This document shows, in pieces, positions 4,865 to 31,478 of a DNA stretch of 64,000 nucleotides. Made by a program: the position numbers and the translations under genes. The DNA comes from Alphaproteobacteria bacterium (lineage in GTDB: Bacteria; Pseudomonadota; Alphaproteobacteria; JBFXJJ01): the NCBI GenBank assembly GCA_050175015.1, contig JBFXJJ010000006.1, forward strand, positions 85,716-149,715, read 5' to 3'. The stretch's first letter is position 1. The number at the start of each line of letters is the position of its first letter. The notes beneath the pieces are model-generated. The model was not told the origin of the DNA and ran no database searches. It worked only from the letters and a program-made list of their open reading frames with translations.

Positions 4865-5368
4865 TTATTTATTATTCTTTTTATTTAGGTCAGAGCAGGC
4901 TTTAATCACCATATCTCTAGCCTTTTCATCTAGAACTTCATTATTAAACATAAATTTGCCGTCCTTGAGCGATATTTGCCCAAGCTTAAAATCTTTTGCT
5001 TCAACCCCTTTTGCTTCTATATTCTGCCAAGCAATAGGATCAAATGAAAAGGATATTTCACTTTGCCCCGCAAAAATACTTTCTCTCTGCCCGCTGTCTG
5101 CGGAAACAACGTTCCTGCCATAGACATCAATATTAGGAACATAGTCAGCGCTGGCGGGTTTAACTTTAGAATCAACATCTTTTTCAAATTCTGACTTTAA
5201 TTCTGCCATAAACTTTTTGCAATCATCTTCATTCACAACCAGAACAGTTTTTTCTAAAACCGCCTGCTTCCCATCTTCTATCATCTTTGATATAGAGCTG
5301 TCCTGAGCTAAAACTATTTGACTATTAGTAAGGATTATTACGGAAAGTAATAAACACCACAATTTCAT
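4865..5368 (-). CDS. Exported hypothetical protein
   Basis: Signal-peptide-like N-terminus ([21 protein letters not shown]); tightly packed between rnj and proS. Confidence 0.7.
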
Positions 5369-7839: not shown

Positions 7840-9249
7840 CTAATTGGGCAATAAAAATGGATACGCACAAACAAGCAGCATTACAAAAAAACTACAAATC
7901 ATAACAATACTATTATATAACCCTATATTATCAAATTTTTCATCTGTTTTTTTAAAATAAACAACATCTATAATTCTGATAAAGCTTAGCAGCATTAAAA
8001 CAAGGGAAATAACTACACATACAATTAGCCAGTATATTTTGGTTTTCAATAATATCATTAGCAGATGAAAAATACCGTAAAAGCCAGCTAAAGCTGGAAC
8101 GCCCGATAAAGACATCATAAAACAAACAAGGACAATAGCCCCAAACGGATGAGAAGAAGCAAAACCTTTAACATCTGCAATATTTTCAATTAGATTTCCA
8201 TTTTTTCTTAAGGATAAAACAATTGAGAAAATACCAACGATGCTAATACTGTAAGATGTTACAAGAAATACTACAGCAGACAAATCATTTTCTTTGATGC
8301 CGATGAATGATGCCCATATATAACCACTATAAACCATAGAACAATATGCCATCATTCTTTTTATGTTTGTTTGAGAAATCATAGCTATGGAACCTAGAAG
8401 CATTGACGCCGCAGCAAAAAACATTAATACAGGCATAAGCTGCGGCCATAAAGGCAAAAAGACATCTTTGATTAAACGAAGCAACACGACAAAATAGGCG
8501 ATCTTCGGTGTTGACAATAAAAATGATGTTACTGGTGTTGGAGCGCCTTCCGCAATATTAATACTGCCAAAGTTGAACATCGCCATATCACATTTAAATA
8601 ATAAACTGGCAATAACCATAAAAAAACCAGCCATAAGCAAGGCATTGTTTCCGTTCTTTGAAACATACTCCGATACGATTTTAAACCCCATACCACCTGT
8701 TGTTCCATAAATAAAAGAAACACCGTACAAATAAAATATTGCAACCACTAAACCTATGGCTAAAAATCTTGTTCCCATAATTGTTGAACGAGTTGCCCTT
8801 CTTTTAAAGGCAACCATCAAATACATCGGAAGCATAGAAAGCTCTAACCCCAAATAAAGGGTTATAAATCCTTTTGCAGAGATTGCTATCATCATTCCAG
8901 CTATCGAGAAAATTAAGAAAAAAGGATATTCATAACGCTTAAATTTTTTCAAAATAAGCCATTCATTGGCTAAGAAAATATTAGCCAAACCACAAAATAG
9001 AATTAATATCTTAAAATAAAGTGTTAGCTTATCATTAACTAAAAATGCCTCTAAATTATAATTAGACATATTGAAAAGAGAGAATGTTAGAAATAAAGCA
9101 CCCAATATAATGACTATTGATGATTTTAGAGCCGTATGATGAGAAATTCCGTGCCTAAATGCCCCCAAAACCAACATCACTACAGGAGCCATCAACAACA
9201 AAATTTCAGTTGTTACAAAACCAAATATATTATGAATTAAACTTATCAT
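7840..9249 (-). CDS. nuoN: Complex I subunit N homolog (divergent)
   Basis: LYLGLELSML, FK...AEGAPTPVTSFL..PK, QTNIKRMMAY, SLSGVPALAGF; last gene of the nuo order. Confidence 0.88.
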   Translation of the reverse strand: MISLIHNIFGFVTTEILLLMAPVVMLVLGAFRHGISHHTALKSSIVIILGALFLTFSLFNMSNYNLEAFLVNDKLTLYFKILILFCGLANIFLANEWLILKKFKRYEYPFFLIFSIAGMMIAISAKGFITLYLGLELSMLPMYLMVAFKRRATRSTIMGTRFLAIGLVVAIFYLYGVSFIYGTTGGMGFKIVSEYVSKNGNNALLMAGFFMVIASLLFKCDMAMFNFGSINIAEGAPTPVTSFLLSTPKIAYFVVLLRLIKDVFLPLWPQLMPVLMFFAAASMLLGSIAMISQTNIKRMMAYCSMVYSGYIWASFIGIKENDLSAVVFLVTSYSISIVGIFSIVLSLRKNGNLIENIADVKGFASSHPFGAIVLVCFMMSLSGVPALAGFYGIFHLLMILLKTKIYWLIVCVVISLVLMLLSFIRIIDVVYFKKTDEKFDNIGLYNSIVMICSFFVMLLVCAYPFLLPN

Positions 9250-9254
9250 AAGCT

Positions 9255-10628
9255 TTACCCTAACTCCGCAATAACTTGATTGGCAAAACTAAAAATTACA
9301 GCAAAAATTTTAGTTTGAAAAACAGCAAGAATAATGGTTGCTGCAATTAATGATAAAAAAGTTAGATAGTCTTTTTTATATCCTATTTTGCTATTAGCAA
9401 TATTGCGATTTTTTGCAAGCACGCTGATTGACGAGAAGAAAATAGCAACAACCGCAATTATCATAAAAACAATATCTTTCTTCATTAGCTCTGAAATCAT
9501 TATAATAAAACCAGAGAATACCGCAAAAGGAGGAAAAACAATAATTACAGGCAAAATTAAAAATTTTAAAACATCTAATATGCTTTTTTCATTATCCAAG
9601 ATTTCCTCAAATTCAAATTGCAGCATCATCAAGGGAAAACAAAAAGCAATAAAGATAAAAATTACCGATGCCATCAAAAGTGCATCAAATGAAAACAATC
9701 CGATTGTAACTATTCCCAAATAAATTCCAAAAAGATAGCTTAAAAATCTAAACGTATTCCGCTCTAAAACAACACATATAGAGCAATATACCGTAGTAAT
9801 AGAAGCCATAATTACTATAATATTGCCATATTCAACACAAACTTTAGGCAACAGCGGCATCACAAAGTGCAAAACCACATAAACAAAGCTCATAATTTGA
9901 CAAGTAAGGAAAAATGATGCCACAGGAGCCTCTAGTTTCCTTAAAAAACCAGCCAGCCAAAAATGATTAGGAACAAAGCCTAGTCTCAAAAATAGCGAAG
10001 CTGCTATTAAAATAAACGTCAGCCTATTTATGTTACAATCTCCTGTTTCCTTATTAAAAAGGTAGCAGACAACCGCCGTTAAAAATAAAAAAGAAGATAA
10101 CAATAAATTAAGAACAGGCCACTTTTCTTTGGTGTTGTCCTCTTCTTCCATATTTATTCGACTTATAAAAATGAAAGGAATTGGAAGTATGAAGAAAAAC
10201 ACATTAAAAAGCATAATATTCAAAGATGAAAACATACCGTTACCAATGGCTGTGGCCAAAAGTATACTAACAATATATTCTTTGTGTTTTTCTTTATTCT
10301 TATCTCTTAAGGAAAAAACACAAAGCATACTCAAAAATGAGTTAATCATAATAAATATTAAAGATACAGCTTCAACGCCAACAGCGTGTTCTATTTTAAA
10401 TTCATTATTAAAAATATCTCTTTTTTCTAATAATTGAAACCCAAGCTTGCTAAAGTCATAACGAAGCACCAAAGATGCGGCAAGAATAAAAGTTGATATT
10501 ACAGTTAATAATGCAACATTGCTGGTATTTTTAGAAATCGTCAAATTTTCGTTTCTAATAAAAAAGATAAAAAATATGCCCATTAGCGGCAAAAATGTAA
10601 TTAAAGATAAAATCGGCCAATTTGTCAT
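9255..10628 (-). CDS. nuoM: Complex I subunit M homolog (highly divergent)
   Basis: Typical alphaproteobacterial NuoM start MTNWPILSLITFLPL; PxHxWL remnant (VPNHFWL) followed by EAP; lies between nuoL and nuoN. Confidence 0.8.
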   Translation of the reverse strand: MTNWPILSLITFLPLMGIFFIFFIRNENLTISKNTSNVALLTVISTFILAASLVLRYDFSKLGFQLLEKRDIFNNEFKIEHAVGVEAVSLIFIMINSFLSMLCVFSLRDKNKEKHKEYIVSILLATAIGNGMFSSLNIMLFNVFFFILPIPFIFISRINMEEEDNTKEKWPVLNLLLSSFLFLTAVVCYLFNKETGDCNINRLTFILIAASLFLRLGFVPNHFWLAGFLRKLEAPVASFFLTCQIMSFVYVVLHFVMPLLPKVCVEYGNIIVIMASITTVYCSICVVLERNTFRFLSYLFGIYLGIVTIGLFSFDALLMASVIFIFIAFCFPLMMLQFEFEEILDNEKSILDVLKFLILPVIIVFPPFAVFSGFIIMISELMKKDIVFMIIAVVAIFFSSISVLAKNRNIANSKIGYKKDYLTFLSLIAATIILAVFQTKIFAVIFSFANQVIAELG

Positions 10629-12355
10629 TTATAAAACACTACAAAACTTAAAGTTAAAATCAACGTTACGGCAAAAAACAGAGCATTAAATGTAAAATTA
10701 TTCTTTTGATAAAGTTTGGCAAATTTCTTTAAAAGCTCAAACATTTTATCAATAATTTTTTCGATTGTCCTATTCAAAATTCTGTTATTAACTTTGTTTT
10801 TTAAGGCTATACCAAAACGAAACATAGGGAAAGCAACCACTTTAAAAAAGAACATATCCGCTTTTTCAGCAAAAGAAAACCTAACTTCTTTAGAGCAGAT
10901 ATTCCGTCTGTAAATTTTTTCAGCCCAAAAAATGCCGACAGCAACTGCGATTAAACGATAACCAGAAAACATATTAAACTTGATATAGTAAGAAACGATA
11001 CTCAAAAATATAGCAGTAACAGACATTGATGATAAAATAAACAATGAACGTTCTTGAACTCTTGCAAACACAGCGTCTTCAGCTTTGGTTGTCCCCAAGC
11101 AGGAACAAATGATAATTCTTGCAACCGCAAAAGCAAAAACACCACTTGCCAAAAGCTCCCAGACATTAATCATATAATCAATTTTTACTATTTTTATGCT
11201 TAGATAAGGAACAAGCATAAAAGCTGCCCCAACCAACATCATAAAATATGTTGCTGGCAAAAGCTTTTTTGCTCCCCCCATTTTATCCAGCCTGTACTCG
11301 CTAGAAAATGCCTCTATCAAAGAACCACAAGCTAGGAAATAAAGCAGGCTTGCCGTGATTTGAAATACTGCAAAGAAAACAAAACCGTCCAAACCATTTA
11401 AAACAAAATAAGTAATCATTAAACCCATCTGTGATGAAATCAAAAAAGCGAGCGATGATGCGATATCTTTTTCAAAAACAGCAAATATTGGCGATAAAAA
11501 TACAGTTGCTACCCCAAGAATCATAGCTATTTCAACAATTTTAGGATTAAACAACAAAACATCAGAAAGCCTTGTCATAACAATCATAAAACATAATGGA
11601 ACGGTAATTGTTGCCGTGACAATAAAACTTGGGAAATGAGCTCTTGATGTTTTTATAAAGACCAAATTTCCAATAATAAAACCGCCTTTTACCCATACAA
11701 ACAGCCAAAGCAAGCTCGAAACAATGTTAATGAGTTCCTTTTTATTCTCAAAATTATTATCTTGAACAAAACCATCATTGCCAAAAGTTGAAAGCCAAAT
11801 GGCAAAAGCTACAAATATCAAGAAACTGCCAATGGTCTCAAACACCATAAAGCTCAAAAGGCTATCTTTGGATTCATCTTGCCTGCGACCGTTGACAATT
11901 AATATCCCTGCAAACAAAAGAGCCAAATCCATACCTAAAATTAATTGAAAAAAACCTGTGGCTAAAATAGCTATTTTTAAGAAAAATATCTGTGAACTGA
12001 GAATAGAAAAAATTGCATTTTTGCTTGTTCCAACGATAGAGAAAGAATAACAAAAAACAAAAACACAAAAATAGATTATTGCAAGAATTAAAAGATACGT
12101 TACTGAGGCTTTATCAACAATGAAGCCGTAAGTTAAATAAAAATTTTCCTTAAAAAGCAGCTGAAAAACCGCGGTCTGTAAATTTCCATCTGCTCCAATA
12201 AAAACTAAAAAGCTAAAAAAAACATCAACAAAAGCTAAAAGAGGAAAAACTAACTCTGATGCCTTTTTTTTGTTAAACTTTTCCAAAACTATACTAGCGA
12301 AAACGGCTAAAAAATTAACCGATAAAACACTGTAAAAAGAAAAAAGTGTCACCAT
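10625..12355 (-). CDS. nuoL: Complex I subunit L homolog (highly divergent)
   Basis: Multi-TM protein with DIxxxLAF..SSQMGLM, FLACGSLIEAF, MGGAKKLLPATY; follows nuoK. Confidence 0.8.
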   Translation of the reverse strand: MVTLFSFYSVLSVNFLAVFASIVLEKFNKKKASELVFPLLAFVDVFFSFLVFIGADGNLQTAVFQLLFKENFYLTYGFIVDKASVTYLLILAIIYFCVFVFCYSFSIVGTSKNAIFSILSSQIFFLKIAILATGFFQLILGMDLALLFAGILIVNGRRQDESKDSLLSFMVFETIGSFLIFVAFAIWLSTFGNDGFVQDNNFENKKELINIVSSLLWLFVWVKGGFIIGNLVFIKTSRAHFPSFIVTATITVPLCFMIVMTRLSDVLLFNPKIVEIAMILGVATVFLSPIFAVFEKDIASSLAFLISSQMGLMITYFVLNGLDGFVFFAVFQITASLLYFLACGSLIEAFSSEYRLDKMGGAKKLLPATYFMMLVGAAFMLVPYLSIKIVKIDYMINVWELLASGVFAFAVARIIICSCLGTTKAEDAVFARVQERSLFILSSMSVTAIFLSIVSYYIKFNMFSGYRLIAVAVGIFWAEKIYRRNICSKEVRFSFAEKADMFFFKVVAFPMFRFGIALKNKVNNRILNRTIEKIIDKMFELLKKFAKLYQKNNFTFNALFFAVTLILTLSFVVFYK

Positions 12356-12646
12356 TTAAACAGCCTCCTCTCCGTCGGTTCTGTGCTTACGGAAACAAAC
12401 AAGCATAATAGCAAGAGAAACCGCTATTTTAGCCGCACCAACAGCAAGAATAAGCATATAAAAAACTTCTCCCATAATATCGCCGTGATACTTTGCAAAA
12501 GCCATAAAATTAATCGCTATACCTGCCTGCATAACAAAGAAAGCGATTATAATCCGAGCAATTGAACCTTTACTAGTAACGGCTCCATAAAAACCGATTA
12601 CAAAGACCACGAAAGCAAGCAGAAGAAAATGATAAATTGTAATCAT
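12356..12646 (-). CDS. nuoK: Complex I subunit K homolog (divergent)
   Basis: 96 aa, 3 TM; HFL..A...F.IG..G, INF.AF..Y.GD..G.VF, LAI.LV.FR. Confidence 0.85.
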   Translation of the reverse strand: MITIYHFLLLAFVVFVIGFYGAVTSKGSIARIIIAFFVMQAGIAINFMAFAKYHGDIMGEVFYMLILAVGAAKIAVSLAIMLVCFRKHRTDGEEAV

Positions 12647-13236
12647 ATTTTGGCTCCCTCTTTTTCTGGTGCAAGTTTAACTAGCTCTAAATCTTCATCT
12701 TTATGGATTTTTGATTTTTTAATTTTTTCCTGTTCTTTGCCTTCTATACCATAAACAAGCATTATAGCCCCCGAAGCTCCACAGAAAAGAATGACACCTG
12801 AAATTTGAAATAGGAAATATCTGCTGTAAAAGAGGTGACGTCCAAGTTCTTTAAATGAAAAAATATCATTATTTACTGCTATTTCTTTTACATTACTTAC
12901 CCCAAAAAATGCCGCAACAACGTTAATTAGAAATACTAGAAATAAAGAGAACATAAAAAAAGCAAATAAATTTTTAATGTTTTTGGAATCATACGAATTA
13001 TTTTCTTCAATCATAATGGCAAAAACAGTAACCACGCATATTGAAGATAAATCTATCAGCCCTAAAGACAACGCAACAAACTCGAAACCAAGAGCAATCA
13101 AAATTCCTGATAAAGTACAAATAAAAGGCACCAAAAACAATAAACCGCTTATTTTATTTTTGGAACTAACCGCAAGTATTGCAAAAAATATTAGCAATAC
13201 TGCGAAAAAATAAAATATGGTATCACTTAAAATCAT
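12643..13236 (-). CDS. nuoJ: Complex I subunit J homolog (divergent)
   Basis: FYFFA start, LGxEFVA, LG..LF...Y.FLFQISGVIL....GAI; overlaps the nuoK start. Confidence 0.82.
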   Translation of the reverse strand: MILSDTIFYFFAVLLIFFAILAVSSKNKISGLLFLVPFICTLSGILIALGFEFVALSLGLIDLSSICVVTVFAIMIEENNSYDSKNIKNLFAFFMFSLFLVFLINVVAAFFGVSNVKEIAVNNDIFSFKELGRHLFYSRYFLFQISGVILFCGASGAIMLVYGIEGKEQEKIKKSKIHKDEDLELVKLAPEKEGAKI

Positions 13237-13244
13237 AATATAAA

Positions 13245-14126
13245 TTATCCATTAAAAACCACATAACCTGCGGTAAAAAAGCTCCAAAAAACGTTTATTG
13301 GAAAAATAAATTTCCACAAAAAACCCAAAAGTTGATCTTCTCTAAATCTTGGGGTCGTATATTTAATAAACATCATAAGAACTAAACATAAGGCTATTTT
13401 AAGAACAAACCAGACAAACTGAGGAATTTTTAACAGCCAAAGAGCGCCACCTATCGGCAGCCAGCCACCTAAAAACATAACCGTAACAAAAGCTGCAACC
13501 GCAAGCATTGAGAGAATGTCGCCCAAATCAAACAACATTAAAGATAGTCCAGAATATTCACTGCGGTACCCTCCTGTAATCTCGGTTGTACCATCAGAAA
13601 AATTGAGAGGTTTCAACATCATAAAAGCAATCATAGAGAAAACAAAACCTATGAAAGTAAGAATATGCGGAAAAACAAACCACATATCTCTCTGGGCATC
13701 AACAATGTCAGCAAATTTCAAAGAATGAGACGAAATAACAACAGGAATAACACTAGAAAATGCTACAAGCCTAGAGTTTATAATCTGCCTAGCTGCTCGG
13801 AGGCTTCCAATAACAGCATTTCTTGTATTACTACCTATGCCTGCCATAATGCAGCCAAAAACATCAAGGCATAAAACCACAAATACCAAAAACAAACCGG
13901 CCTCAACATTCGCAAAAGCCGCCTTTTCACTAAAAGGAATAAGCAGAAAAACAAGCATTGCAACACAAATGTTGATTACAGGAGCAACCGCGAAAAAGAC
14001 ACTATCGGCATCTTTAGGTAAACTGTATTTTTTAGTATGTACTTTAAAAATTGATAAAAAATCTGAAGTCAAACCTTTTGCTAAATTTATGAAAAACTGA
14101 GATAAAAAACACTTCATAATAACCAC
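13245..14126 (-). CDS. nuoH: Complex I subunit H homolog (N-terminally truncated, divergent)
   Basis: AD..F..AP, AG.GSN...A.IGSLRAA.Q, GY.SEYSG, FLGGWLP, PRFREDQL...WK. Confidence 0.88.
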   Translation of the reverse strand: MVIMKCFLSQFFINLAKGLTSDFLSIFKVHTKKYSLPKDADSVFFAVAPVINICVAMLVFLLIPFSEKAAFANVEAGLFLVFVVLCLDVFGCIMAGIGSNTRNAVIGSLRAARQIINSRLVAFSSVIPVVISSHSLKFADIVDAQRDMWFVFPHILTFIGFVFSMIAFMMLKPLNFSDGTTEITGGYRSEYSGLSLMLFDLGDILSMLAVAAFVTVMFLGGWLPIGGALWLLKIPQFVWFVLKIALCLVLMMFIKYTTPRFREDQLLGFLWKFIFPINVFWSFFTAGYVVFNG

Positions 14127-14131
14127 AATTC

Positions 14132-15274
14132 CTATTTATCAATATTAGCAGAAGAAACGTCTAAACTCGCAACAATCAAAGGAACATCTGAAATAAAGCT
14201 TCCCTTAAGCAGCATATTTAAGGATCCTGCATGAGCAAGGCTTGGCGTCCTGATGCTACAACGATAAGGCTTATCTGTTCCATCAGATACAATAAAAACA
14301 CCTAACTCGCCTTTAGGGCTTTCAACACAACTTAAAACCTCATCTTTATCATTAGGTTTTATATCATAACTACTTAAAATACTGCTATATTTATTATTCC
14401 TGCCTGAACTTAAAACATCAATTTCACCTTGCGGAATCTTAATAAGAGCCTGATTAATTATTGCCATTGATTGTTTTATCTCTTCAAATCTTACAAGACA
14501 TCTAGCATAGCAATCTCCAGCCTCACACACTGGAATTTCAAAGTCAAAATCAGCATATACACCATAAGATGTTTTTCTTCTCAAGTCCCACACACAGCCT
14601 GAAGCTCTAAGACAAGGACCAGAAAAACCTAAAGACATCGCTTGATCAAAATCAACAAACCCGACATCTTTTGTCCTGACCTTAAAACCATAATTATTGG
14701 TTACAACCTTATCAACTTCTTCAAGAAAACAAGATAATTCATTGTTTAAAAATGATTTTATTCCAAAAACAAAATCATCAGACAAATCAAATCTAACTCC
14801 GCCCAAACAAAAGAGACCTTCTTGAATTCTAACATCTAGCGTTTTTGTATAAATTTCAACAAGTTGCCGTTTTAACTTAACCGATACACTTAAGATATTG
14901 TCCATACCAACTGTGTTGCAAATATTTCCAATATTAATAATATGATTGATAATTCGAGCAATTTCAGCGTGAACAGTTCTTATATAAGATGCCCTTTTGC
15001 TAACCTCGATATTAGCCAGATATTCACAAGCTAAAACAAATGGATATTCAGAAGAAAAAGGAACGCTATTATCAATACGGCTCATATAGGGAATAATATT
15101 GGCATATTTTTTACTTTCAAAGCTCTTCTCTAAGCCTTTATGATAATATCCAACATAAGTCTCGGCATCACTTATAGCCTCACCCTCAACGTGAAGACGG
15201 AACTTTATCCCGCAAGCAAGATAATTCTCAACCCCTATCTCAAATGTATCAGAAACAGCTTTATTATGAACCAT
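14132..15274 (-). CDS. nuoD: Complex I subunit D homolog (divergent; quinone-site residues lost)
   Basis: HKGLEK, GFSGPCLRASG..WDLRR, GDCYARCLVR.EE, VESPKGELGV, DGTDKPYRC.IR; no NiFe CxxC motifs. Confidence 0.92.
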   Translation of the reverse strand: MVHNKAVSDTFEIGVENYLACGIKFRLHVEGEAISDAETYVGYYHKGLEKSFESKKYANIIPYMSRIDNSVPFSSEYPFVLACEYLANIEVSKRASYIRTVHAEIARIINHIINIGNICNTVGMDNILSVSVKLKRQLVEIYTKTLDVRIQEGLFCLGGVRFDLSDDFVFGIKSFLNNELSCFLEEVDKVVTNNYGFKVRTKDVGFVDFDQAMSLGFSGPCLRASGCVWDLRRKTSYGVYADFDFEIPVCEAGDCYARCLVRFEEIKQSMAIINQALIKIPQGEIDVLSSGRNNKYSSILSSYDIKPNDKDEVLSCVESPKGELGVFIVSDGTDKPYRCSIRTPSLAHAGSLNMLLKGSFISDVPLIVASLDVSSANIDK

Positions 15275-15295
15275 AGCTAAACCCTAAAATATCTA

Positions 15296-15889
15296 TCAGC
15301 CCTTTATCTGGCAGCAAGCCCCAAAAGCACTACAAGTTGTTTGCTCGTTTTCTTTGGGAAAAAGCCTAATAATTTTGCGATTATCATCAAATTTTTTCTC
15401 GAACTCACCATTAAGAGGAAAATCTTTTCTTAAAGGATACCCCTTAAACCCAAAATCATTATAAAGACGCCTTAAATCTGGGTGTTCGGCAAAACATATC
15501 CCAAACATATCCCAAACCTCTTGCTCATACCAAACAGCAGAGTCATAGACTTGAGATACTGATTTTACCAGTTTCAAGCCATCGTTTGTTATTCGAACAA
15601 TAATTCTCTGATTAAGCTCGTGGCTTAAAATATGATATAAAACCTCAAAACGCTCTTCTTTTTCAGGGTAATCTATCCCCGAAATATTAGTTAAACTAGA
15701 AAATCTACAGTTAGCATCATCTCTTAGAAAAGAAAGAACTCTAGGAAGCAGCCTAGGCTGCGCATATATATTAAGAATGCCGTTTTTTATCACAACATTT
15801 TTAATGCTGTCTTGAAGACTCGCTTCAATATAAGCCGCAAGATTTTCAAGATTATTCTCTATTTGTAACCGACGATGTTTCTTTTTCAT
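15296..15889 (-). CDS. nuoC: Complex I subunit C
   Basis: DYPE..ERFEV.YH.LS, WYEQEVWDMFG, HPDLRR...D.GF.GYPLRKDFPL. Confidence 0.93.
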   Translation of the reverse strand: MKKKHRRLQIENNLENLAAYIEASLQDSIKNVVIKNGILNIYAQPRLLPRVLSFLRDDANCRFSSLTNISGIDYPEKEERFEVLYHILSHELNQRIIVRITNDGLKLVKSVSQVYDSAVWYEQEVWDMFGICFAEHPDLRRLYNDFGFKGYPLRKDFPLNGEFEKKFDDNRKIIRLFPKENEQTTCSAFGACCQIKG

Positions 15890-15898
15890 AGCTTTTTG

Positions 15899-16360
15899 CT
15901 AGTCCTTGTTAGTAATAAATTTAAAAACATCAAAAATGAGACTTGGATCTGGAGGACAACCAACCACCTGAATATCAACAGGCACAATCTTATCAACGCC
16001 TCTAACTAAGGAATAAGAAGAATAAAGCCCACCAGAACAGGCGCAAGATCCAACCGCCACAACCCATTTAGGAAACGCCATTTCGTCATAAACATGCCTT
16101 ATAATTGGAGCAACCTTATTAGTTATTTCTCCAGAAAAGACCATAACATCACAATGTTTAGGACTATTTTTAATCGAGACTTTTAAGCTTTTATCAACAC
16201 TGCTGTACGGCATAAACATATCCAGCCCACAACAGCCTTGATCCAATAGATATACCGCAAGAGAATTAGTTATAATTTTCTTATTTTCTCTTAAAACCAC
16301 AAATTTTGAATTAGATGGAACTTTACCAGCATCATTAAGACTACAGCTTATCTTTTCCAT
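15899..16360 (-). CDS. nuoB: Complex I subunit B homolog (N2 Fe-S ligands retained)
   Basis: GCCG, SP...D.MV, VYDEM..PKWV.AVGSCA.SGG, SYS.VRG.DKIVPVD..V.GCPP. Confidence 0.92.
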   Translation of the reverse strand: MEKISCSLNDAGKVPSNSKFVVLRENKKIITNSLAVYLLDQGCCGLDMFMPYSSVDKSLKVSIKNSPKHCDVMVFSGEITNKVAPIIRHVYDEMAFPKWVVAVGSCACSGGLYSSYSLVRGVDKIVPVDIQVVGCPPDPSLIFDVFKFITNKD

Positions 16361-16704
16361 TCGAAGCCTCCCTTACACAAAACGTATACCAACGTAAAGA
16401 GTTGAATAAGAAAGTAGGCTAAAATCACAAAGAATAGTTTCCAGCCAATATTAAACAATGAAACCGCCCAAAGCATAAAAAACACCATAACCGGAGAAAA
16501 TACTACAAAGACTATCGCAACAGGAAAATTTTGAAACGAGAAATAGCCATTAAAAAACGCTTTTTCTTTTCTTATTTCTGAGATTTTTTGATTATTATCG
16601 GTTATTTTTTTAGCGATAAAAAAGGAAACAAGCGGCATAATGATAATAAAAATCAATACAAAAAAAAGAAAAAATCCTAGATAGCCGTCAGGAATAGTAA
16701 CCAT
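16348..16704 (-). CDS. nuoA: Complex I subunit A homolog (divergent)
   Basis: 118 aa, 3 TM; F.VAIVFVVF.....F..WAV and C-terminal KGGFEW; first gene of the nuo order. Confidence 0.8.
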   Translation of the reverse strand: MVTIPDGYLGFFLFFVLIFIIIMPLVSFFIAKKITDNNQKISEIRKEKAFFNGYFSFQNFPVAIVFVVFSPVMVFFMLWAVSLFNIGWKLFFVILAYFLIQLFTLVYVLCKGGFEWKR

Positions 16705-28642: not shown

Positions 28643-29071
28643 ATGCCTGTACTTTGGAGAAATGACTTAAGTGTTGGCTGCAAAGATATTGATAACGACC
28701 ATAAAAATTGGCTTAATGTAGTCAATGTTGTATCAATGGGAGTTGATTCTGGAGATGTTAAGTTAGTAAAAAAAGCTATGGATGATGCTGTTGAATATTC
28801 TAGGCAGCATTTTTATCGTGAAGAAAAACTAATGAAAAACATCAGTTACCCGTATTATGAAGAACACTTTGAAATTCATTCAACTTTTATTGAAAAAATA
28901 AATGATTTTCAAACAGATATGAATATGAATATGGATTATCACCCTGAAGAAGCTATGAAAATAGGTAAAAAGTTCGCAACTTTTACTAGGAACTGGCTTT
29001 TGAGTCACATAAAAAATGAAGACAGCAAAATCAGTCCTTTCATTAATAACAAATGTGATAATCTCGATTAA
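28643..29071 (+). CDS. Bacteriohemerythrin
   Basis: W...LSVG..ID.DH, HF..EE.LM, YP...H...H, WL..HI..ED: a full di-iron ligand set. Confidence 0.92.
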   Translation: MPVLWRNDLSVGCKDIDNDHKNWLNVVNVVSMGVDSGDVKLVKKAMDDAVEYSRQHFYREEKLMKNISYPYYEEHFEIHSTFIEKINDFQTDMNMNMDYHPEEAMKIGKKFATFTRNWLLSHIKNEDSKISPFINNKCDNLD

Positions 29072-30056: not shown

Positions 30057-31478
30057 TCAACTAAGGCGTTTTTTTAGTTCTTTCGTTGAAACGCCCGTTT
30101 CCATTTCAAAAAATTCAATCTTTTCCAAGTGCTTATTTAACTTCTCATCAGGAAGCTTAGTTTGAATACGAGCAACCGTTCCTTCTGGAACTTTTGAAGC
30201 ATCTATCGTTTTAAAAAGATTTTTATCAATTTTTATCAAAGAGTTTTTATTGGGAGAAACCATCTCACATTCTTTGTCATTAACGGCATCGATAAGTTTA
30301 TCCAAAACTACTTGATGATTGCCCATACCATTGGGCATAACAAACTCAATAACATCGTTTGGTCTTAGTGTATTTTTAACCTCAAACACAATTTGACTAT
30401 CGCTGTTTTCTTTAATCATTCCCGCAAACAGCCACTCACCTAAAGGTGATGTTACGTTATAATCGTGAGCCAGATGCGTTGGTATTCCTCGATGGAACCC
30501 TAAACTGTAACCTCTGGTTTGAACGGTATAAAGCTCTTTCATAAAAGGAATAGGCGAAAAGTCTTCGGGATTATTAAAATAGCTGTCTATTGCTAAGCGA
30601 TAAGCTTTTGCGGTAACCGCTACATAATAAGCACTCTTATTTCTTCCTTCTATTTTCAAGGAATCAAGATTAGCCGATAAAACCTCATCTAAGACAGGAA
30701 GCAGACATAAATCTTTAGCGTTAAAAAGAAAACTGCCATTTTCGTTTTCTTCAACTTCCAAAAACTCTCCTGGTCTGAATTCCTCTTCTACTAAGAAATT
30801 AAATAAATCCCTATTCTTATCATTTATTGGTATTTCTTCAATACTGCCATCTTTAAGTTTTAAATGCAGCTTATAATTCCAGCGGCAGGAATGAGAACAT
30901 ATTCCTTTATTAGCGGAACGATTGGTTAAATAAGATGATATTAAACATCTTCCCGAATGGCTCATACACATTGCGCCGTGAACAAACGCCTCCAACCTAA
31001 CATCAGGGCATTTTTCTCTTATGGTTTTAATTTCATTAATCGAAAGCTCTCGGGCAAGAATACAAAGACTTGCGCCTCTTTTCTGCCACGATTTAACGGT
31101 TAAATATGATGCTATATTAGCCTGTGTCGAAATATGCTTAGGAACATTAGGAGCAAGATCCATTGCCAAATCAAAAACCCCGTTATCCGAAATGATAAAG
31201 CCGTCAGGATTAAGAGTAGCTAACTTAGGAATAGCAACTGCCAGCTTTTCAATATCATCATTGCGGGAAACAACGTTTAAGTTAAGATAAACTTTTTTCC
31301 CTAAACTATGAGCAAATTTTATTCCTTCACTAAGTTCATCAGCTTCAAATTTAGCCTGAGAACGCAAAGAAAAAGCGGAAGAACCTGCATAGATAGCATC
31401 TGCGCCATATAAAAATGCGGTCTTCATTTTTAAATAATCGCCAGCTGGCAACAATAATTCTGGTTTTTTTATCTTCAT
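30057..31478 (-). CDS. U32-family protein, probably tRNA hydroxylase TrhP (YegQ-like)
   Basis: PELLLPAG, YGADAIY, HISTQAN, HGAMCMSHSGRCLIS, C.HSCRW.Y, SLKIEGR.KS.YY. Confidence 0.85.
   Translation of the reverse strand: MKIKKPELLLPAGDYLKMKTAFLYGADAIYAGSSAFSLRSQAKFEADELSEGIKFAHSLGKKVYLNLNVVSRNDDIEKLAVAIPKLATLNPDGFIISDNGVFDLAMDLAPNVPKHISTQANIASYLTVKSWQKRGASLCILARELSINEIKTIREKCPDVRLEAFVHGAMCMSHSGRCLISSYLTNRSANKGICSHSCRWNYKLHLKLKDGSIEEIPINDKNRDLFNFLVEEEFRPGEFLEVEENENGSFLFNAKDLCLLPVLDEVLSANLDSLKIEGRNKSAYYVAVTAKAYRLAIDSYFNNPEDFSPIPFMKELYTVQTRGYSLGFHRGIPTHLAHDYNVTSPLGEWLFAGMIKENSDSQIVFEVKNTLRPNDVIEFVMPNGMGNHQVVLDKLIDAVNDKECEMVSPNKNSLIKIDKNLFKTIDASKVPEGTVARIQTKLPDEKLNKHLEKIEFFEMETGVSTKELKKRLS

Follow-up and report, generated by a model that had tools for sequence, protein, structure and literature searches.

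A ten-gene complex I-like operon lacking nuoE, nuoF, nuoG, nuoI and the quinone ligands of NuoD in an alphaproteobacterium

The window analysed here, a stretch of 64,000 nucleotides from an alphaproteobacterial genome (assembly GCA_050175015.1, contig JBFXJJ010000006.1, positions 85,716 to 149,715 of the forward strand), contains an operon for a complex I-like assembly, nuoA-B-C-D-H-J-K-L-M-N, at 7840-16704 on the minus strand (Table 1). Pfam and NCBIfam models together gave the nuo subunit identities of all ten open reading frames, and a Pfam domain was found in nine of the ten proteins, NuoM being the exception. The genes are spaced at -13 to +21 nucleotides, with several overlaps. In the 14 alphaproteobacterial genomes whose nuo regions we compared, the order is the canonical A-B-C-D-E-F-G-H-I-J-K-L-M-N. 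The few nucleotides left at the D-H and H-J junctions indicate that nuoE, nuoF, nuoG and nuoI were cleanly excised. The birA gene begins 3 nucleotides downstream of nuoN and is followed by the genes for RNase J (rnj) and ProS (proS). As BirA and RNase J homologues also lie downstream of nuo in 11 of the 14 relatives' loci, the operon sits at the ancestral alphaproteobacterial locus. Judged from its sequence, it derives by heavy reduction from the alphaproteobacterial nuo operon of 14 genes.

Table 1. Genes and gene junctions of the reduced nuo operon, in order of transcription (positions in the window)
Feature	Position	Strand	Length	Assignment or remark
nuoA-like	16348..16704	-	118 amino acids	Pfam PF00507, E 2.2e-6
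nuoB-like	15899..16360	-	153 amino acids	Pfam PF01058, E 1.7e-22
nuoC-like	15296..15889	-	197 amino acids	Pfam PF00329, E 1.2e-38
nuoD-like	14132..15274	-	380 amino acids	alignments to solved chains and canonical NuoD
nuoD-nuoH junction	14127..14131	-	5 nucleotides	nuoE, nuoF and nuoG here in 14/14 relatives
nuoH-like	13245..14126	-	293 amino acids (290 counted from ATG)	Pfam and alignment
nuoH-nuoJ junction	13237..13244	-	8 nucleotides	site of nuoI in relatives
nuoJ-like	12643..13236	-	197 amino acids	Pfam PF00499
nuoK-like	12356..12646	-	96 amino acids	Pfam PF00420
nuoL-like	10625..12355	-	576 amino acids	Pfam PF00361, E 2e-11
nuoM-like	9255..10628	-	457 amino acids	no Pfam match; NCBIfam NuoM, E 4.5e-36
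nuoN-like	7840..9249	-	469 amino acids	Pfam PF00361, E 5.4e-42

A preliminary description of this DNA, aligned by eye to remembered consensus motifs, had proposed that the quinone site is erased in NuoD. HMMER alignments against chains of solved complex I structures, together with MAFFT alignments that include canonical NuoD, bear this out for each motif. GPQHPAAHG is replaced by GVENYLACG (15209-15235), with loss of both His, and RLDY by RIDN (15068-15079), with loss of the Tyr; A(L/M)DVG reads CNTVG (14906-14920), lacking the Asp, and GEIDR reads ANIDK (14135-14149). A check set beforehand, for His or Tyr at shifted positions, was run by alignment and found neither in NuoD. The only new aromatic candidate in the former quinone loop is Tyr18, within an ENY motif. 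In PMC4758237, H38, Y87 and D139 of Thermus NuoD are described as quinone-binding residues. The corresponding headgroup ligands in the window are Cys for His, Asn for Tyr and Thr for Asp, and the neighbouring His is also lost.

The best solved-structure matches of this NuoD are the mitochondrial and Paracoccus 49-kDa/NuoD chains (E ~1e-67), and its scores with the two NCBIfam NuoD models, 334.1 and 302.9, lie under the respective cut-offs of 360 and 459.35. We measured degeneration as the fraction of invariants kept, invariants being positions identical across 12-14 canonical alphaproteobacterial operons, and scored the relatives leave-one-out. Among 14 alphaproteobacterial NuoD, 149 positions show no variation; the window protein retains 68 of them, where the relatives keep at least 94%. 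The protein contains 12 Cys and zero CxxC, so the earlier statement that it is not the large subunit of a NiFe hydrogenase holds; the [NiFe] hydrogenase identity, group 4 included, is rejected on the absence of the N- and C-terminal CxxC pairs.

NuoB keeps all of the N2 cysteines, as first noticed, in GCCG (16226-16237), GSCA (16040-16051) and GCPP (15950-15961). These are Cys43, 44, 106 and 135, the predicted ligands of the cluster. The protein lacks ~40 N-terminal residues, and its SPRQ motif reads SPKH. NuoB (NF005012) and NuoC (TIGR01961) are the only subunits that pass subfamily models, and NuoC is the best kept of all (29/42 invariants). The canonical C-terminal tail of NuoC, conserved as ..SPWEG..LPGDEKA in the 14 relatives, is replaced by TTCSAFGACCQIKG (15299-15340, minus strand), in which three Cys are arranged as CxxxxxCC; this Cys-rich tail could be a metal or cluster ligand. 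In NuoH, an alignment gap of ~48 residues covers both the first transmembrane helix (TM1) and the ERK..GPN loop, which agrees with the preliminary reading of a protein of ~290 residues without either, and the first hydrophobic segment does not occur before residue 40. SYEVS is changed to NSRLV and AETNR to AFMML, with loss of the Glu of both motifs. The NuoH deletion is shared with a relative, P0136.

Degeneration spans all ten subunits, beyond the NuoD and NuoH to which it had initially been assigned, and the share of invariants kept per subunit runs from 25 to 69%. Besides the NuoC and NuoD values given above, the window keeps 11/42 invariants in NuoA, 39/84 in NuoB, 44/101 in NuoH, 16/43 in NuoJ, 12/29 in NuoK, 38/151 in NuoL, 39/129 in NuoM and 38/69 in NuoN; the relatives keep at least 80%, and mostly at least 94%. 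Most charged proton-path residues of NuoA, H, J, K, M and L are lost: the invariant charged residues kept are 0/6 in NuoA, 0/2 in NuoK, 1/19 in NuoM, 4/26 in NuoL and 9/21 in NuoH, and 8/14 in NuoN. NuoA lacks the YECGF and FDLE motifs, NuoJ the conserved TM3 motif, and NuoK has Phe and Lys73 in place of its two class-invariant membrane Glu. NuoL is the most degenerate subunit, with WEG changed to MDL and a 24-letter canonical block lost; it retains the Lys of the KSAQ motif, an acidic TM5 residue, the C-terminal transverse helix and the last transmembrane segment. In NuoM, the TM5 Glu is replaced by Phe and the TM7 Lys by Arg, neither the TM8 Lys nor the TM12 Glu remains, and the score against the NCBIfam NuoM model is 124.6 bits (cut-off 585). 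NuoN, the best-kept membrane subunit, retains the TM5 Glu, TM7 Lys and TM8 Lys and has Ile for the TM12 Lys. The assignment of these antiporter-subunit motifs and residues to helices is one that we take over from the complex I literature and assume to apply, whereas the invariance itself was measured here. None of the ten proteins reaches any NCBIfam equivalog cut-off. The additional loss of E-channel and antiporter residues argues against a pump that has simply changed its substrate.

Could the whole lineage be fast-evolving? The adjacent genes are near-normal, with 17/17 (BirA), 49/52 (RNase J) and 83/96 (ProS) invariants kept, a share of 86-100%, and their proteins are as similar to those of relatives as the relatives are among themselves. 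A generally fast-evolving lineage is therefore rejected, and the sequence acceleration is specific to the nuo genes.

The host genome comprises 2.53 Mb in 49 contigs and is 99.4% complete; none of the 40 nearest genomes offered for comparison is closer than class level. Its gene content agrees with the earlier proposal that the complex has neither a donor wire nor a quinone acceptor. On the donor side, NuoI was not found genome-wide. The best score against TIGR01971 is 29.4 bits, under a cut-off of 113.05 that is passed in 31 of the 40 relatives, and tblastn for NuoI returned solely a 51-residue ferredoxin-like match. Searches for NuoE, NuoF and NuoG (tblastn with the relatives' proteins, and PF01512) found as homologues only HydABC on contig C4 and RnfC on contig C5. 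On the acceptor side, where the ligands of the pocket are gone, the genome gave 0 matches to the UbiA-family prenyltransferase (controls 14/14 positive), 0 to cytochrome bd and 0 to COX1 of the haem-copper oxidases. No SdhA/FrdA-type flavoprotein was found in the genome, FAD_binding_2 giving Rossmann-tip matches only. Rnf, the [FeFe]-hydrogenase HydABC and ATP synthase are encoded, and the gene content reads as that of a quinone-free fermenter. A compensating second nuo operon is rejected: a genome scan gave one PF00346 match, the single NuoD gene, and two PF00361 matches, all within this operon, with no Proton_antipo_M proteins outside it.

A U32-family peptidase gene lies at 30057-31478 (minus strand) in this genome without a UbiA-family match, and a hemerythrin-domain gene lies near it (28643-29071, plus strand). 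Some U32 proteins (UbiU/UbiV) act in oxygen-independent ubiquinone synthesis; the gene in the window is more probably a member of the RNA-hydroxylating branch.

Among 5.8 billion clustered proteins, the only close ones are the NuoD proteins P0002 and P0003 (56-58% identity) and the NuoH protein P0136 (60%); the next-closest NuoD stands at 38%. All three have the same losses as the window. P0002 keeps 65 and P0003 62 of the 68 invariants kept in the window NuoD, the other sites being 51-52% identical, and P0136 keeps 37 of the 44 kept in the window NuoH, with 55% identity elsewhere. That these metagenomic relatives hold on to 91-96% of the retained NuoD invariants argues for purifying selection. 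Selection is also suggested by the integrity of the frames. The ten intact open reading frames total 2936 codons, in which 4.2% of single-base changes give a stop, and with more than half of the residues changed, unconstrained drift should, as a rough inference, have broken them many times. Hydrophobic, membrane-spanning segments are preserved across the proteins of the operon.

The lost sites behave differently from the retained ones. At the 81 lost NuoD invariants, the window's residue is shared at 29 sites by P0002 and at 31 by P0003, and 21 of the 81 carry one identical replacement in all three clade members, including E16-N17-Y18 in the former quinone loop, K46, N377 and K380. The quinone-ligand positions vary across the three clade NuoD (C/L/S, N/N/D and T/A/A), which points to relaxation rather than a re-tuned site. 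Together these patterns indicate that selection continues on fold and assembly and that the former catalytic sites are relaxed. Wider searches added little to the clade. The clade alignment, run against metagenome contigs, matched a single, irrelevant locus (27% identity), a scan of genome contigs gave no clade member among the 80 loci listed (best identity 37%), and a profile search of 1.84 billion representatives returned the clade's own cluster only, followed by P0142 (325 bits).

We also surveyed 251 alphaproteobacterial genomes of at least 80% completeness for the same operon type. NuoI was called at E <=1e-25 (218 genomes) and NuoD at E <=1e-30 (230 genomes), and the two listings were crossed by hand, with NuoI absence in six genomes inferred from their being missing among the 218. 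The tallies include one or two genomes marked as unpublished (G040, G233), on which no claim is based. NuoD without NuoI occurs in 14 of the 251 genomes, and we inspected the loci of 12 of these, leaving out G141 and G194. Four of the 12 have nuoD, nuoH and nuoJ in direct succession (D-H-J order): the window genome (G000), G002 of family f3, and G023 and G041 of family f24; outside the window genome, the contigs break off within nuoL or nuoM. The remaining eight are of other kinds. G004 has the canonical arrangement, interrupted by a contig break; E, F and G are present in G067; the I-like genes of G018, G225 and G108 are divergent and are accompanied by some of E, F and G; and G123, G199 and G026 have fragments or lone genes only at the inspected locus.

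All four D-H-J genomes encode a NuoD without both His and the Tyr, a NuoB with the four N2 Cys, and an [FeFe] hydrogenase; UbiA above cut-off was found in none of the four (completeness 99, 81, 87 and 87%). Their NuoB proteins lose 39-60% of the other invariants, and persistence of the four Cys through such losses suggests that the cluster itself is under selection. Degeneration is graded, with 55-74% of invariants kept in G002, 30-62% in G023 and 24-71% in the window; G002 keeps both NuoK Glu and 64% of the NuoL invariants. Of the subunits, C, D, B and H (plus N in the window) are best kept in the two lineages that are most derived, and L, M, J and A worst. The indels of the four operons differ in length and position, and no flanking gene was found to be common to the window operon and those of G002, G023 and G041.

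Two quick NuoD trees were made. The window clade groups with P0142, P0143 and P0146 at 97% support in the first and 9 in the second. Stems are 0.5-1.6 long and the deep order is unsupported, so that either one origin or several would fit, and long-branch attraction is likely. The public NuoD proteins P0142, P0143, P0146 and P0147 also lack the quinone His, His and Tyr. P0142 is 82% identical to the G002 NuoD, and P0146 groups with that of G018, whose operon (L124, G018:C37) has the order A-B-C-D-G'-H-I'-K-L-M-N; its G-like and I-like genes are short, and E and F are missing. Several operon types thus seem to include quinone-blind variants of NuoD. In family f27, the NuoD of G026 (L125, G026:C129) has an in-frame TAG, and the single-contig genome G199 (L143, C1 785000-804000) has only NuoC-like and NuoD-like open reading frames within 19 kb. 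These remnants may mean that loss has gone further in this family, or that the genetic code differs.

What, then, might such a complex do? We tentatively favour, at a probability of about 40%, a redox-dead, non-pumping pseudoenzyme that acts as an iron-sulfur (Fe-S)-bearing membrane scaffold or as a redox or O2 sensor. NADH oxidation is impossible because NuoE, NuoF and NuoG are absent, the usual electron route to N2 is closed because NuoI is absent, and quinone cannot be bound or reduced because the His, His, Tyr and Asp of NuoD and the entrance in NuoH are gone and no quinone is made. An L-shaped membrane complex would nevertheless still be assembled, judging from the preservation of fold-determining residues and membrane hydrophobicity, of the NuoL transverse helix and of translational coupling. 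The selected core would probably be a stub of NuoB (with one [4Fe-4S] cluster, N2), NuoC and NuoD on NuoH, with NuoN next. N2, the binding of which is predicted, would serve folding, assembly or sensing rather than turnover.

Several points weigh against this pseudoenzyme reading. The scaffold or sensor role is a residual inference. Of the interpretation offered in the preliminary description, the loss of donor wire and quinone acceptor stands on gene content and alignments, and the part that proposed sensing or a new partner gained no supporting result. The replacements that are shared within the clade may mark a new NuoD site instead of none. NuoN with three of four channel residues, and G002 with both NuoK Glu and most NuoL residues, leave some ion movement conceivable. 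The graded series of G002, G023 and the window can be read as slow decay. The NuoB of the two closest relatives was not found, the best matches (P0132-P0134) being ordinary NuoB. A search for sequencing runs gave one DNA run, labelled landfill metagenome and maybe the source sample, with no RNA run listed.

The complex could instead be a new redox enzyme, in which an N2 laid open to the cytoplasm by the loss of NuoI is fed directly by ferredoxin, flavodoxin or the 2x[4Fe-4S] domain of HydABC and passes electrons to a non-quinone acceptor at the remodelled NuoD loop, NuoH and NuoN possibly still moving ions. N2 lies beneath NuoI in established complex I structures. Such an enzyme would account for the N2 Cys kept in all four genomes of the operon type, for the ENY motif that is invariant in the three clade members, and for the [FeFe] hydrogenase in all four genomes, the window's NuoE/F/G homologues being chiefly those of HydABC; Rnf, in addition, indicates a ferredoxin economy. 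We nonetheless consider it unlikely. The quinone-ligand positions vary within the clade, ENY is absent from G002 (TMQQT) and G023 (GLQPL), the E-channel carboxylates and NuoM residues are gone, and the operon contains no candidate partner gene, hydABC lying on another contig. A bolder form of the idea is that the four genomes of three families, together with the metagenomic proteins, represent a distinct functional family of membrane Fe-S complexes in hydrogen-producing, quinone-free alphaproteobacteria, with N2 fed by a soluble partner. In that family, the HydA 2x[4Fe-4S] domain could occupy the former place of NuoI, and the body of complex I would be a membrane anchor, a redox sensor or a residual ion gate for fermentative hydrogen metabolism; we regard this as distinctly improbable. 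A redox-independent, Mrp-like cation/proton antiporter, with the B-C-D stub kept only for assembly of the arm, would be consistent with the absence of any other Proton_antipo_M protein, which means that no separate Mrp was found in the genome by that family, and with the residues retained in NuoN, in NuoL (acidic TM5 residue and KSAQ Lys) and in the NuoK and NuoL of G002. It is quite unlikely, given the near-absence of charged invariants in NuoM, NuoL, NuoK and NuoA and the TM12 Lys-to-Ile change in NuoN, and because the distal arm (L and M) is worst kept and the stub best, the opposite of what an arm-centred function predicts.

A functionless relic, decaying slowly after quinone loss and not yet deleted or broken, would explain why degeneration is graded across lineages, why formerly invariant sites are relaxed and why all subunits fail curated equivalog cut-offs. 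The remnants in family f27, with their fragments, the in-frame TAG of G026 and the lone C and D at the examined locus of G199, also speak for it. We give this account little credence, since ten intact, tightly coupled frames persist with more than half of the residues changed, and since relatives just 56-58% identical keep 91-96% of the remaining canonical residues. The clean excision of nuoEFG and nuoI with retention of the rest, in four genomes of three families, likewise fits selection in deletion-prone genomes. Very improbable indeed is a laterally acquired ancient complex, of the 11-subunit or Mbx/Ehr type, that never had a quinone site. The NuoD trees do not put the clade within the canonical alphaproteobacterial group, setting it on a stem of 1.06-1.63 at an unsupported base, and PMC4758237 describes ancestral types without H38/Y87. 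Against such an origin stand the ancestral locus with birA and rnj downstream, the mitochondrial and Paracoccus structures as best matches, the NuoI homologue that the 11-subunit and Mbx types have and this operon does not, and a NuoD without CxxC.

How does the operon compare with known systems? It resembles the 14-subunit enzyme (Nuo14) of Alphaproteobacteria and mitochondria in having A, B, C, D, H, J, K, L, M and N in the same order at the same locus, and in its N2 Cys, NuoL transverse helix and transmembrane hydrophobicity. It differs in lacking the N-module, NuoI, the quinone site, the E-channel, the antiporter residues and scores at the curated level, with only the N2 Cys kept among these features, and in a host without detected quinone biosynthesis or oxidases. 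The 11-subunit complex I-like enzymes of cyanobacteria and plastids (NDH-1), Desulfitobacterium and Dehalococcoides mccartyi also have no NADH module (see also PMC11238625 and PMC3144371). In Dehalococcoides the complex is encoded although respiration is quinone-free, and 0/11 subunits were detected in a complexome study, as given in PMC6005880; this quinone-free 11-subunit Nuo, compared by description only, is the nearest published analogy that we found. The 11-subunit enzymes keep a NuoI with two clusters and, as described, a working acceptor site and pump residues, and an 11-subunit NDH-1 type is rejected for the window because NuoI is absent and the acceptor site is degenerate.

Mbx and MBS (Pyrococcus) and Ehr similarly have a NuoD-like subunit without NiFe Cys or quinone ligands, and homology of the window NuoD to MBS 6u8y_L (E 5e-44) and MBH 6cfw_L (E 9e-34) is detectable. 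NuoD forms without H38/Y87 are described from Mbx, Nautiliales, Desulfurobacteriales and Sulfolobus in PMC4758237, where the Mbx/Ehr-like forms have a NuoI-like protein, or a GltD-like one in its place. These are ancestral or separate lineages with Mrp-type gene sets, whereas the window operon is a Nuo14 that was secondarily reduced at the ancestral locus. The Mrp antiporters (Mnh/Pha), finally, are homologous to the NuoL/M/N/K arm and perform no redox chemistry, and NCBIfam models of the Mrp/Mnh D subunit match NuoN at E 1e-24 to 1e-11, far under their cut-offs. Mrp depends on the conserved Lys and Glu that the NuoM, NuoL and NuoK of the window have largely lost. An Mrp identity is rejected because NuoB, C, D and H are present and the channel residues are mostly lost. 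Full-text literature searches, which did not cover subscription-only papers, gave no description of an alphaproteobacterial Nuo without NuoI and quinone site.

The operon shows that selection can preserve the chassis of complex I after all of its textbook chemistry is gone. That is relevant to the question of which complex I parts serve folding and assembly and which serve catalysis, with N2 singled out by the retention of its Cys in all lineages examined. Recurrence in three alphaproteobacterial families, each with an [FeFe] hydrogenase and no UbiA match, allows the operon type to be compared at three stages of degeneration. In hydrogenosome-type organelles of anaerobic eukaryotes, NuoE and NuoF are usually what remains of the complex; free-living anaerobic alphaproteobacteria of the window type have the reverse pattern. 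If a family with N2 fed by a soluble partner were to prove true, it would be a new re-use of the complex I chassis. There is also a practical consequence, as automated annotation and metagenome reconstruction would call NADH-quinone oxidoreductase and respiration from these genes, which would be wrong here.

Other features of the D-H-J genomes and the window are of more local interest. In G023, a second locus (L127, contig C70, 2002-11309, plus strand) carries HydC-, HydB- and HydA-like genes followed by NuoL-, H-, B-, C-, D- and I-like genes. Its D-like protein has the NiFe motifs CGIC and CISC, in contrast to the window NuoD, so that genes for an [FeFe] hydrogenase and for a group-4 [NiFe] hydrogenase module appear to share one operon; there are matches at the corresponding places in G041. 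In the window, an acidic open reading frame of 113 amino acids, P0140 (16753-17094, minus strand), lies 48 nucleotides upstream of nuoA and has a good AGGAG ribosome-binding site. P0140 has no Pfam or NCBIfam match, and a feature search of a protein atlas gave a weak PilZN/PilZNR-like lead (score 0.91). A prediction of a complex of NuoB, NuoD and P0140 returned no answer (score 0.00) and counts neither way. Promoter and terminator scans of the window do not rise above chance (60 where 53.5 are expected, and 12 where 8.6 are), and no tRNA or Rfam family was detected in it. P0141, which matches no family in Pfam or NCBIfam and has no homologue in the loci of the 14 relatives, lies between the RNase J and ProS genes (4865-5368, minus strand) and encodes 167 amino acids with a signal-peptide-like N-terminus.

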